From: Escherichia coli
GTDB taxonomy: Bacteria > Pseudomonadota > Gammaproteobacteria > Enterobacterales > Enterobacteriaceae
Reading direction: 5' to 3' (one strand)
DNA length: 64,000 bases
Assembly (NCBI RefSeq): GCF_050920415.1
Contig: NZ_CP169309.1
The notes under the pieces are model-generated. The model did no database searches. It saw only the letters and a list, made by a program, of their open reading frames with translations, and was not told where the DNA came from. The position numbers and the translations under genes were made by a program. Positions 48,535-50,294 of the stretch are shown one piece after another; position 1 is the stretch's first letter; every line of letters begins with the position of its first letter.

Positions 48535-49863
48535 ATGGCAATGTTCGGTTTTCCTCACTGGCAGTTAAAATCGACCTCTACAGAGAGCGGCGTGGTCGCG
48601 CCGGATGAACGATTGCCGTTTGCTCAGACGGCAATAATGGGCGTTCAACACGCGGTGGCAATGTTTGGCGCGACAGTGTTAATGCCGATTCTGATGGGGC
48701 TGGATCCCAATCTTTCCATTTTGATGTCGGGGATCGGCACGTTACTGTTTTTCTTTATTACCGGCGGGCGCGTCCCCAGTTATCTCGGTTCCAGCGCGGC
48801 TTTTGTCGGCGTGGTGATCGCCGCGACGGGCTTTAATGGTCAGGGAATTAATCCGAATATCAGCATCGCGCTGGGCGGGATTATCGCCTGTGGGCTGGTT
48901 TATACCGTCATTGGCCTGGTGGTGATGAAAATCGGTACGCGCTGGATTGAACGACTAATGCCGCCGGTTGTGACGGGTGCGGTGGTGATGGCGATTGGCC
49001 TGAACTTAGCGCCTATCGCGGTGAAAAGTGTATCGGCTTCGGCCTTTGATAGTTGGATGGCGGTAATGACGGTGCTGTGTATTGGGCTGGTGGCGGTGTT
49101 TACCCGTGGCATGATCCAGCGATTATTGATTCTCGTAGGATTAATTGTCGCCTGTCTGCTGTATGGCGTGATGACCAACGTTTTAGGGCTGGGAAAAGCC
49201 GTCGATTTTACTCTCGTCAGCCATGCTGCCTGGTTCGGTCTGCCACATTTTTCCACTCCTGCTTTTAATGGTCAGGCAATGATGCTGATTGCGCCCGTGG
49301 CGGTTATTCTGGTGGCGGAAAACTTAGGTCATCTGAAGGCGGTAGCCGGGATGACCGGACGCAATATGGATCCATATATGGGGCGGGCATTCGTAGGCGA
49401 TGGGCTGGCAACAATGCTTTCGGGTTCTGTCGGCGGTAGCGGCGTAACCACCTATGCTGAAAATATCGGTGTGATGGCCGTGACCAAAGTCTACTCGACG
49501 CTGGTGTTTGTTGCTGCCGCCGTCATCGCCATGCTGTTGGGCTTTTCGCCGAAATTTGGCGCACTAATCCATACCATTCCGGCACCGGTGATTGGTGGTG
49601 CGTCAATTGTTGTGTTCGGGTTAATTGCCGTCGCAGGCGCGCGGATCTGGGTACAAAATCGTGTGGATTTAAGTCAGAACGGTAATTTGATTATGGTCGC
49701 AGTAACCTTAGTGCTGGGTGCTGGTGATTTTGCTCTCACGCTGGGCGGTTTTACGTTGGGAGGGATCGGTACAGCAACCTTTGGCGCGATTTTACTCAAT
49801 GCGTTGTTGAGCAGAAGGTTGGTTGACGTTCCTCCGCCAGAAGTTGTTCATCAGGAACCATAA
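48535..49863 (+). CDS. rutG: pyrimidine permease RutG (NCS2 family)
   Basis: ORF 48508..49863; start set at MAMFGFPHW to give 442 aa; multi-pass. Confidence 0.9.
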   Translation: MAMFGFPHWQLKSTSTESGVVAPDERLPFAQTAIMGVQHAVAMFGATVLMPILMGLDPNLSILMSGIGTLLFFFITGGRVPSYLGSSAAFVGVVIAATGFNGQGINPNISIALGGIIACGLVYTVIGLVVMKIGTRWIERLMPPVVTGAVVMAIGLNLAPIAVKSVSASAFDSWMAVMTVLCIGLVAVFTRGMIQRLLILVGLIVACLLYGVMTNVLGLGKAVDFTLVSHAAWFGLPHFSTPAFNGQAMMLIAPVAVILVAENLGHLKAVAGMTGRNMDPYMGRAFVGDGLATMLSGSVGGSGVTTYAENIGVMAVTKVYSTLVFVAAAVIAMLLGFSPKFGALIHTIPAPVIGGASIVVFGLIAVAGARIWVQNRVDLSQNGNLIMVAVTLVLGAGDFALTLGGFTLGGIGTATFGAILLNALLSRRLVDVPPPEVVHQEP

Positions 49864-49867
49864 ACAG

Positions 49868-49892
49868 AAAACCGCCGGGATTACCGGCGGTG
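49868..49892 (+). terminator. hairpin after rutG
   Basis: ccgccgg gatta ccggcgg stem-loop starting 5 nt after the rutG stop. Confidence 0.45.
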
Positions 49893-49920
49893 CAGATTGT
49901 TGACAACGTGCGCATTGTTC

Positions 49921-50022
49921 ATGCCGGATGCGGCGTGAACGCCTTATCCGGCCTACAAAACAGTGCAAATTCAATATATTGCAATCTTCTGGTAGGCCTG
50001 ATAAGCATCGCGCATCAGGCAA
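49921..50022. repeat. REP pair (BIME) between rutG and ymdF
   Basis: gccggatgcggcgtgaacgccttatccggcctac and inverted gtaggcctgataagcatcgcgcatcaggca. Confidence 0.75.
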
Positions 50023-50120
50023 GCTTACATTTGTCATCAGTATCAACCGCCGGGGTAACCGGCGGTGATGGCTTTTTGACGAGCGACAGACAAAAATGCA
50101 TGCGTCATTGATTAGCCCGG

Positions 50121-50294
50121 CTAGTTGTCGCTTTTACCGTGACTGCTCTTGCCACCTTTTTTACCTGCTTCAGATGCGCGCTGCGGGTCATTTTTGAAAT
50201 TACCCCCGCTGTGCTGTCCACCTTTTTTACCTGCTTCTGATGCTCTTTCGCGGTCTTCTGCAAAATTGCCGGAACCGCCTCGATGGTTTGCCAT
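50121..50294 (-). CDS. ymdF: KGG-repeat stress-induced protein YmdF
   Basis: ORF 50121..50324; start set at MANHRGGSG to give 57 aa; repeated EAGKKGG motifs. Confidence 0.8.
   Translation of the reverse strand: MANHRGGSGNFAEDRERASEAGKKGGQHSGGNFKNDPQRASEAGKKGGKSSHGKSDN

Follow-up and report, generated by a model that had tools for sequence, protein, structure and literature searches.

The window, a 64,000-nt stretch of Escherichia coli DNA, carries a BIME-1 element that was very probably inserted into the putative bidirectional terminator of rutG and ymdF, with duplication of the whole 23-bp palindrome, probably by cuts at the feet of the hairpin. The two genes are convergent (rutG on the + strand, ymdF on the - strand), and the element and the duplicated hairpins sit in the spacer between their stop codons (Table 1). 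The window is oriented as the reverse complement of K-12, in which the region lies near 1.068 Mb.

Table 1. Features of the rutG-ymdF spacer and its neighbours, in window positions
Feature	Position	Strand	Basis or remark
rutG CDS (pyrimidine transporter)	48535..49863	+	ORF list, rutG annotation in matching E. coli records, tblastn
A-rich tract TAAACAGAAAA	49859..49869		Sequence, terminator scan; outside the left hairpin; on the - strand, T/U-run of the ymdF-direction terminator
rutG stop codon TAA	49861-49863	+	
Left copy of target hairpin AACCGCCGGGATTACCGGCGGTG	49870..49892		Direct repeat D1; fold -17.7 kcal/mol; only one copy in short alleles
Complete BIME-1 unit (left arm, Y PU, L linker, Z1 PU, right arm), 152 bp	49893..50044	+	Block absent from short alleles
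BIME-1 left arm CAGATTGTTGACAACGTGCGCATTGTTCA	49893..49921	+	Partial terminal inverted repeat with right arm (I1); conserved in alignment A2
Y-type palindromic unit (REP)	49922..49956	+	Inverted repeat I7; exact Y PU pattern match
L linker, 35 nt, IHF-site-like ATTCAATATATTG	49957..49991	+	Conserved in A2; Rfam ES036/CssrF match here
Z1-type palindromic unit (REP), inverted relative to Y	49992..50021	+	Inverted repeats I4, I11; BIME-1 pattern match 49942-50005
BIME-1 right arm AGCTTACATTTGTCATCAGTATC	50022..50044	+	Conserved in A2; junction base counts
Right copy of target hairpin AACCGCCGGGGTAACCGGCGGTG	50045..50067		Fold -20.2 kcal/mol; equals the single hairpin of several short alleles
T-rich tail ATGGCTTTTTG, original	50068..50078	+	rutG-direction terminator tail; present after the single hairpin of short alleles
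ymdF CDS (57-aa KGG-repeat stress protein)	50121..50294	-	ORF list, annotations, tblastn

Two stem-loops, CCGCCGGGATTACCGGCGG at 49872-49890 and CCGCCGGGGTAACCGGCGG at 50047-50065, bracket the element. The pattern CCGCCGG-N5-CCGGCGG has exactly two matches in 64 kb, where 0.03 are expected, and none of 100 shuffles reached two. The repeat extends to 23 nt, AACCGCCGGG[A/G]T[T/A]ACCGGCGGTG, with 21/23 identity between the copies and a start-to-start spacing of 175, and it encloses a sequence of exactly 152 bp. Because the stems are palindromic, orientation is decided by the loop and the outer bases; by manual count the copies match at 21/23 positions as direct repeats and at 16/23 as inverted repeats, so they lie in the same orientation. 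A preliminary description of this DNA had reported two near-identical stem-loops bracketing a REP pair in the same orientation, which our counts bear out. The sites it gave (49868..49892 and near 50045..50070) exist, with ends that were off by a few bases.

We then considered the hairpins as terminators. Each folds at -15.7 to -20.2 kcal/mol (z of about -3.5 to -4) and has the GC-rich stem-loop and U-run of an intrinsic terminator, with an 8-bp stem containing 7 G:C pairs. A terminator scan flagged a + strand site with its stem at 50046-50066 and the tail GATGGCTTTT, and a - strand site with its stem at 49891-49871 and the tail TTTCTGTTTA; only the distal hairpin is thus flagged on each strand, hairpin 2 on the + strand and hairpin 1 on the - strand. 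The single hairpin of the short alleles described below carries both tails, the A-tract on one side and the T-tract on the other. Judged by these tails, the ancestral-type spacer is one in which a single GC-rich hairpin forms a putative bidirectional intrinsic terminator common to rutG and ymdF.

We compared the locus across the species. A 657-bp query spanning the spacer matched in 5,425 of 5,426 complete E. coli genomes. The full-length long form, with hairpin, BIME-1 and hairpin as in the window, is present in 1,733 of the 5,426. About two thirds of the 5,426, a number obtained by subtraction and from an evenly spaced sample of the matches, have a short form with one hairpin and without the BIME, and the sampled non-long genomes are ~175 bp shorter. 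The short allele, ...CATAAACAGAAAACCGCCGGGGTAACCGGCGGTGATGGCTTTTT..., retains one hairpin and lacks the BIME in ST131, O157:H7 and other representatives (alignment A1). Long and short alleles differ by 175 bp, which is made up of the 152-bp element together with a single 23-bp copy of the hairpin. Between the unique flanks there are 23 nt in short alleles and 197-200 nt in long alleles. The preliminary description had read the paired hairpins as a terminator duplicated around a BIME that had inserted there, or as a target duplication from REP mobilisation, and a short allele that is the long allele minus 175 bp agrees with this. It had also pointed to genomes with one hairpin and no REP pair as the comparison to make; such genomes exist and are the majority of the 5,426, and the outcome it had named as refuting, both hairpins in all genomes regardless of REP content, did not occur.

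A third allele occurs in 18 genomes, NT1W25 among them; here the same point is occupied by another BIME-1 copy, 86.8% identical to that of the window and in the opposite orientation. The inverted BIME-1 of NT1W25 is bracketed by the same hairpin (..CCTCCGGGGTTACCCGGCGGTG|element|ATCCGCCGGGGTTACCCGGCGGTG..), and the inverted allele is also present in E. coli SCPM-O-B-8794 (L097), where the hairpin copies are identical at 23 of 24 positions. Since two elements in two orientations are accompanied by the same duplicated segment, duplication accompanies insertion, and the rutG-ymdF hairpin is a preferred target.

The 3' end of rutG (window 49400-49863) is unusually divergent among E. coli, with 90.7-95.5% identity over 463 nt, whereas the ymdF side is 93.5-99.6% identical across the same comparison; this suggests a recombination boundary or relaxed constraint beside the BIME site. 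Some O157:H7 genomes have a ymdF of 108 nt rather than 174 nt, an in-frame loss of 66 bp (O157:H7 OK1, L004 581-688) that probably arose by recombination between the internal KGG-motif repeats of the gene. In the window these KGG-motif repeats appear as direct repeat D5 (50072-50090 and 50156-50174). The short-allele strain SCU-116 has rutG annotated as a frameshifted pseudogene (L002 1-500).

The inserted sequence has the organization of a BIME-1. As the preliminary description stated, a REP pair lies between the hairpins; its Y and Z1 units are in inverted orientation, as seen from inverted repeats I4, I7 and I11 and because the sequence fits the Y-linker-Z1 pattern exactly. Across copies the 35-nt linker is conserved, and its putative IHF site, ATTCAATATATTG, differs by one mismatch (by eye) from WATCAANNNNTTR. 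An Rfam match to ES036/CssrF at 49957-49999 scored 38.5 bits against a gathering score of 37.6 and was the sole match above threshold; we rejected ES036/CssrF as an independent gene because the Rfam model covers the BIME-1 linker only. Insert positions 1-152 align at 85-88% identity to sites at yiiF-fdhE, fepA-entD, satP-mog, gcd-cueO and tkt, five intergenic loci taken from genomes without the insert at rutG-ymdF. In the multiple alignment (A2) the similarity begins and ends exactly at the insert boundaries, CAGATTGTTGACAA... and ...TTGTCATCAGTCTC. Whole-length matches elsewhere and similarity confined to the insert therefore identify it as one complete BIME-1 that extends beyond the REP pair. 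The preliminary description was right that the inserted unit includes the REP pair, but the unit is larger, a complete 152-bp BIME-1 with conserved outer arms.

Other characters of the family are also present. The sequence is dispersed, multi-copy and extragenic, with at least 38 sites in a genome and with the five other intergenic loci matching over the full length, and the arms with their A/B motifs are kept in A2 in a unit of the ~140-150 bp size class. The REP hairpins start 29 and 23 nt in from the BIME-1 ends. As inverted repeats, the consensus ends CAGATTGTTGACAA and TTGTCATCAGTCTC match at 11 of 14 positions, and the terminal 30 nt of the copies have a median of 14/30 matches (among the matches listed). 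The element itself is of a catalogued repeat kind, BIME-1 (RIB/RIP, the REPIN-type REP doublet of E. coli). Elsewhere in the window, at 33803-33936, two more Y-type palindromic units lie on the same strand 100 bp apart, with 1 and 3 mismatches to the Y consensus; this pair is a BIME-2-like or atypical cluster.

We assessed whether the footprint recurs at other BIME-1 copies. A species-representative genome collection was scanned with a BIME-1-specific pattern, which gave at least 120 loci, and setting the element ends against the consensus arms yielded 46 full-length copies (among the matches listed, plus the window), 34 of which are exactly 152 bp long. For each copy the left-flank suffix was aligned to the right-flank prefix, and a score of ≥12 was taken as a flanking repeat. 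The control consisted of 2,070 mismatched left/right flank pairings, including orthologous loci in sister genomes. Among the matches listed, 27 of the 46 full-length copies have flanking repeats by this threshold, compared with 0.8% of the mismatched pairings. By genome, scores of ≥12 were obtained for 6/13 copies in E. albertii, 9/13 and 7/12 in two Pseudocitrobacter genomes, 4/7 in E. coli SCPM and 1/1 in the window. After removal of orthologues, these represent 19 independent target hairpins in four genomes (among the matches listed).

The duplicated segments of the 27 cases (among the matches listed) are 17-30 nt long, and their copies are 80-100% identical. They fold end to end at -9 to -20 kcal/mol, centred on the hairpin dyad; with 45-nt folds a few large dyad offsets appeared where another helix was picked, and the repeats folded alone pair end to end. 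The duplications overshoot the outermost G:C pair by a modal 2 nt (range 1-5) on each side. The upstream outer flank is A-rich in 20/27 cases and the downstream one is T-rich in 17/27, a pattern characteristic of bidirectional intrinsic terminators. Repeats abut the exact ends of the element. Because the flanking hairpins are locus-specific while the element is constant, the hairpins are target sequence and not element sequence. What the allele and locus comparisons have shown, at the level of sequence, is a duplication that is symmetric about the dyad, varies in length with the hairpin, and involves a palindrome that is single in the empty alleles. The flanks themselves show a weak preference in the junction base counts (...CTT before the element, AAG... 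after it).

The remaining 19 of the 46 full-length copies have no long duplication (among the matches listed). In a minority (L116, L118, L120, L053 and L081) the repeats are only 4-7 nt long and lie at one foot of a single hairpin; other copies have none. At the zapB locus (L095), considered as a further E. coli empty-site test, the left flank proved to be strain-specific, and there was no allele with which it could be compared. We rejected plasmid and phage copies as recent clean-junction insertions: all full-length copies examined are captured chromosomal segments, from the cueO, dppA and ybjO regions and a transduced bio locus. The captured cueO, dppA-dppB and ybjO segments are on plasmids L138 (IncY pE6474.2), L139 and L140, and the segment on pE6474.2 adjoins an ISVsa5 (IS10-like) transposase. 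Two arrays in E. albertii look like local amplification: a run of four 147-bp BIME-1-like units in tandem, which have truncated right arms and are not separated by hairpins (L018 6973-7478), and a BIME-1 flanked on both sides by more BIME-1 with the same hairpin separating each (L044 ~1600-1850). The Y-linker-Z1 pattern also matched in a Desulfonatronum MAG contig (L046), where the sequence beside the match is unlike the BIME-1 consensus arms, and in a 262-bp contig of Desulfosporosinus sp. OT (L078). These matches in unrelated anaerobes are most likely enterobacterial contamination or mis-binning.

The tkt locus provides a graded series. Downstream of tkt, the hairpin AAGGGCCGCGAAAGCGGCCCTT occurs once in WP4, where a T-run follows it; the arrangement is hairpin-BIME-1-hairpin in SCPM and hairpin-BIME-1-hairpin-BIME-1-hairpin in GPEC403. 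Every extra BIME-1 brings exactly one extra hairpin (alignment A3). The second tandem BIME-1 of GPEC403 (L014 251-600) has the locus-specific variants of the first copy, and its left end, GAGACTGATGGCAA, is now a near-perfect complement of its right end, TTGCCATCAGTTTC. This suggests a local duplication followed by intrastrand palindrome-templated correction.

The alternative that survives best, although we consider it improbable, is that the ancestral state is the long form, from which a deletion between the 23-bp direct repeats, by slipped mispairing or RecA-independent recombination, produced the short form; the repeats would then be no insertion footprint. Short direct repeats around a 152-bp quasi-palindrome are good deletion substrates, and earlier work, as summarised in PMC1187871, named the absence of BIME-1 'excision'. 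In a tree of ~715 nt of coding flanks, the long alleles fall on at least three haplotypes interleaved with short alleles, and the loop variants of the short alleles (GGTAA, GGTTA and GATTA) mirror the left and right hairpin copies of the long alleles. The tkt copy is common to E. coli and E. albertii, yet some E. coli are empty. Deletion accounts for loss, however, and not for the origin of the repeats. It does not explain why the same architecture occurs at 19 unrelated hairpins (among the matches listed), with repeats that abut the exact ends of a dispersed element, or why two different BIME-1 copies in opposite orientations occupy one site. Since E. albertii also has the tkt copy that some E. 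coli lack, precise loss between direct repeats probably occurs too, as a secondary process on top of insertion, and some short alleles at rutG-ymdF may be such losses between the 23-bp repeats rather than never-filled sites. With interleaved haplotypes at a recombining locus and this shared tkt copy, gain and loss are therefore inseparable for each lineage. As a source of an outgroup, rutG and ymdF were not found in the E. albertii or Pseudocitrobacter BIME-1 loci compared, and an exact YmdF protein look-up for outgroup contexts returned only E. coli-like contexts.

Alternatively, the terminator could have been tandemly duplicated first, for unrelated reasons, and BIME-1 inserted later between the copies without duplicating anything. 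This order of events would agree with an IS200/IS605-like mechanism that makes no duplication (PMC3333891). We consider it very improbable because no hairpin-hairpin allele without a BIME was seen among the length classes at rutG-ymdF or tkt. It would also require that one and the same rare precursor had arisen at each of 19 independent loci (among the matches listed) and that every insertion had hit the joint exactly, and at tkt exactly one hairpin is added per added BIME. The idea that rutG and ymdF each have their own hairpin terminator and that the two are alike through coincidence or convergence, or else that the hairpins belong to the outer parts of the BIME, has next to no probability: convergent genes often own one terminator each and the scan flags one hairpin per strand, but 21/23 identity that includes the loop and outer bases, with 0.03 chance matches expected, speaks against it, and short alleles with exactly one copy and the locus-specific hairpins elsewhere refute it.

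Under the preferred reading, insertion with duplication of the target hairpin, one target strand would be cut at one foot of the hairpin and the other strand at the opposite foot, in each case ~2 nt outside the G/C stem, and most simply with the palindrome in an extruded or folded state. The element would be joined in and the hairpin-length single strands then filled in. Duplication length would consequently equal palindrome length instead of a fixed stagger set by the enzyme. A folded palindrome places its feet side by side, so that an ordinary stagger of ~4 nt would enclose the whole palindrome, and the rare 4-7-nt repeats at one foot could be products of the same reaction on unfolded DNA. 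For this geometry of cuts at the two feet, which we read from the repeat boundaries, we would put the chances at even or slightly lower. Replication template-switching as the origin is less likely because the ends of the element share no homology with its targets.

RAYT/TnpA-REP is the candidate enzyme for mobilisation of REPs, BIMEs and REPINs, and its in vitro cleavage is confined to single-stranded DNA, at C^T (PMC3333891). Given this activity and its duplication-free relatives, the candidate enzyme does not obviously predict the footprint. In the junction base counts (...CTT|CAGA...TCTC|AAG...), many boundaries have a C^T 2 nt away. We dropped a sequence-specific C^T cut model since the rutG-ymdF junctions (..GGTG|CAGA..) do not fit it.

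We compared the locus with described systems. BIME-1 elements consist of inverted Y and Z1 units with a ~35-nt L linker bearing an IHF-like site and outer arms, ~150 bp in all, and are extragenic at gene 3' ends, numbering dozens per genome and varying in presence from strain to strain (PMC3333891; PMC1187871); the element studied here resembles them in each of these respects. The element, its family and its presence/absence polymorphism are thus already known from the accounts given in these two sources, the latter citing Bachellier 1997. The insertion mechanism is called unknown by Ton-Hoang et al. and by a 2026 preprint (PMC3333891; bioRxiv 10.64898/2026.03.23.713779). We see no difference in the element itself; bracketing by a duplicated locus-specific terminator hairpin is not in the descriptions found. 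In the REP, BIME, REPIN and RAYT literature searched, of which Bachellier et al. 1997 was not part, there is no mention of target duplication or duplicated terminators. That study (Genetics 145:551) reportedly sequenced filled and empty BIME-1 sites, and flanking repeats may be noted there; its abstract is said to read the absence of BIME-1 as 'excision'. Boccard & Prentki 1993 reportedly described the 3'-end location of these elements. The locus is a case of a known element kind with an apparently under-described insertion footprint. The joint proposition, that BIME-1/REPIN insertion is directed by target structure through hairpin-foot cuts and that this footprint is also unreported, is tentative, and we regard it as unlikely to hold in full.

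Other mobile systems recognize folded DNA: class C group II introns target terminator hairpins, IS1397 targets PU loops and integrons use folded attC sites. Class C introns, IS1397/ISKpn1 and attC recombination resemble BIME-1 in that the target is chosen as a folded stem-loop. They differ in that they enter next to or within the hairpin and are not known to duplicate all of it, and their enzymes are unrelated. Like MITEs (ERIC/IRU, Correia), the element is small and non-coding, with ends that match imperfectly as inverted repeats, target direct repeats and strain polymorphism. To our knowledge, no matching DDE transposase exists for BIME-1. MITE duplications are short and of a fixed length set by the transposase (PMC3184786), whereas those at BIME-1 are variable (17-30 nt) and track palindrome length. 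One review describes REPs as being without MITE signatures.

With the IS200/IS605 family the element shares subterminal hairpins, ends set away from the feet of those hairpins, and a candidate cognate enzyme of the Y1 HUH type, which binds the hairpins of REPs (PMC3333891). Members of that family insert beside a short motif and make no target duplication (PMC3333891, PMC2817692), in contrast to the structure-defined duplications seen here, which are 23 nt at rutG-ymdF and 17-30 nt at 27 of 46 copies (among the matches listed). In place of a short specific sequence beside the left end, the flanks of BIME-1 are locus-specific hairpins.

The arrangement has predicted consequences for both genes. 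The original U-tract is still attached to each outer hairpin, and rutG transcripts are therefore predicted to pass hairpin 1 and the BIME and to stop at hairpin 2. ymdF transcripts should be the mirror image, with a predicted stop at hairpin 1 after passing hairpin 2 and the BIME. With termination predicted to be kept in both directions, such insertions would be tolerable, which would fit the 3'-end location of BIME-1. Both 3' UTRs are predicted to gain a REP doublet and the convergent transcripts to gain ~200 nt of overlap, additions that are relevant to strain-to-strain differences in expression.

REPs and BIMEs are the most abundant repeats of E. coli, and their insertion route has been open for ~40 years. 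Reproducible duplication of the entire target hairpin, with cuts that would fall ~2 nt outside the stem, is a footprint that narrows the possible mechanisms and speaks against a simple single-strand paste of the IS200/IS605 type. It would account for the presence of BIME-1 at gene 3' ends and between convergent genes, and the terminator hairpin is a defined target for in vitro and in vivo assays. If true, structure-directed insertion contradicts the no-duplication IS200/IS605 model and gives a substrate for the long-missing transposition assay. It would also explain the position of these elements at the 3' ends of transcription units.
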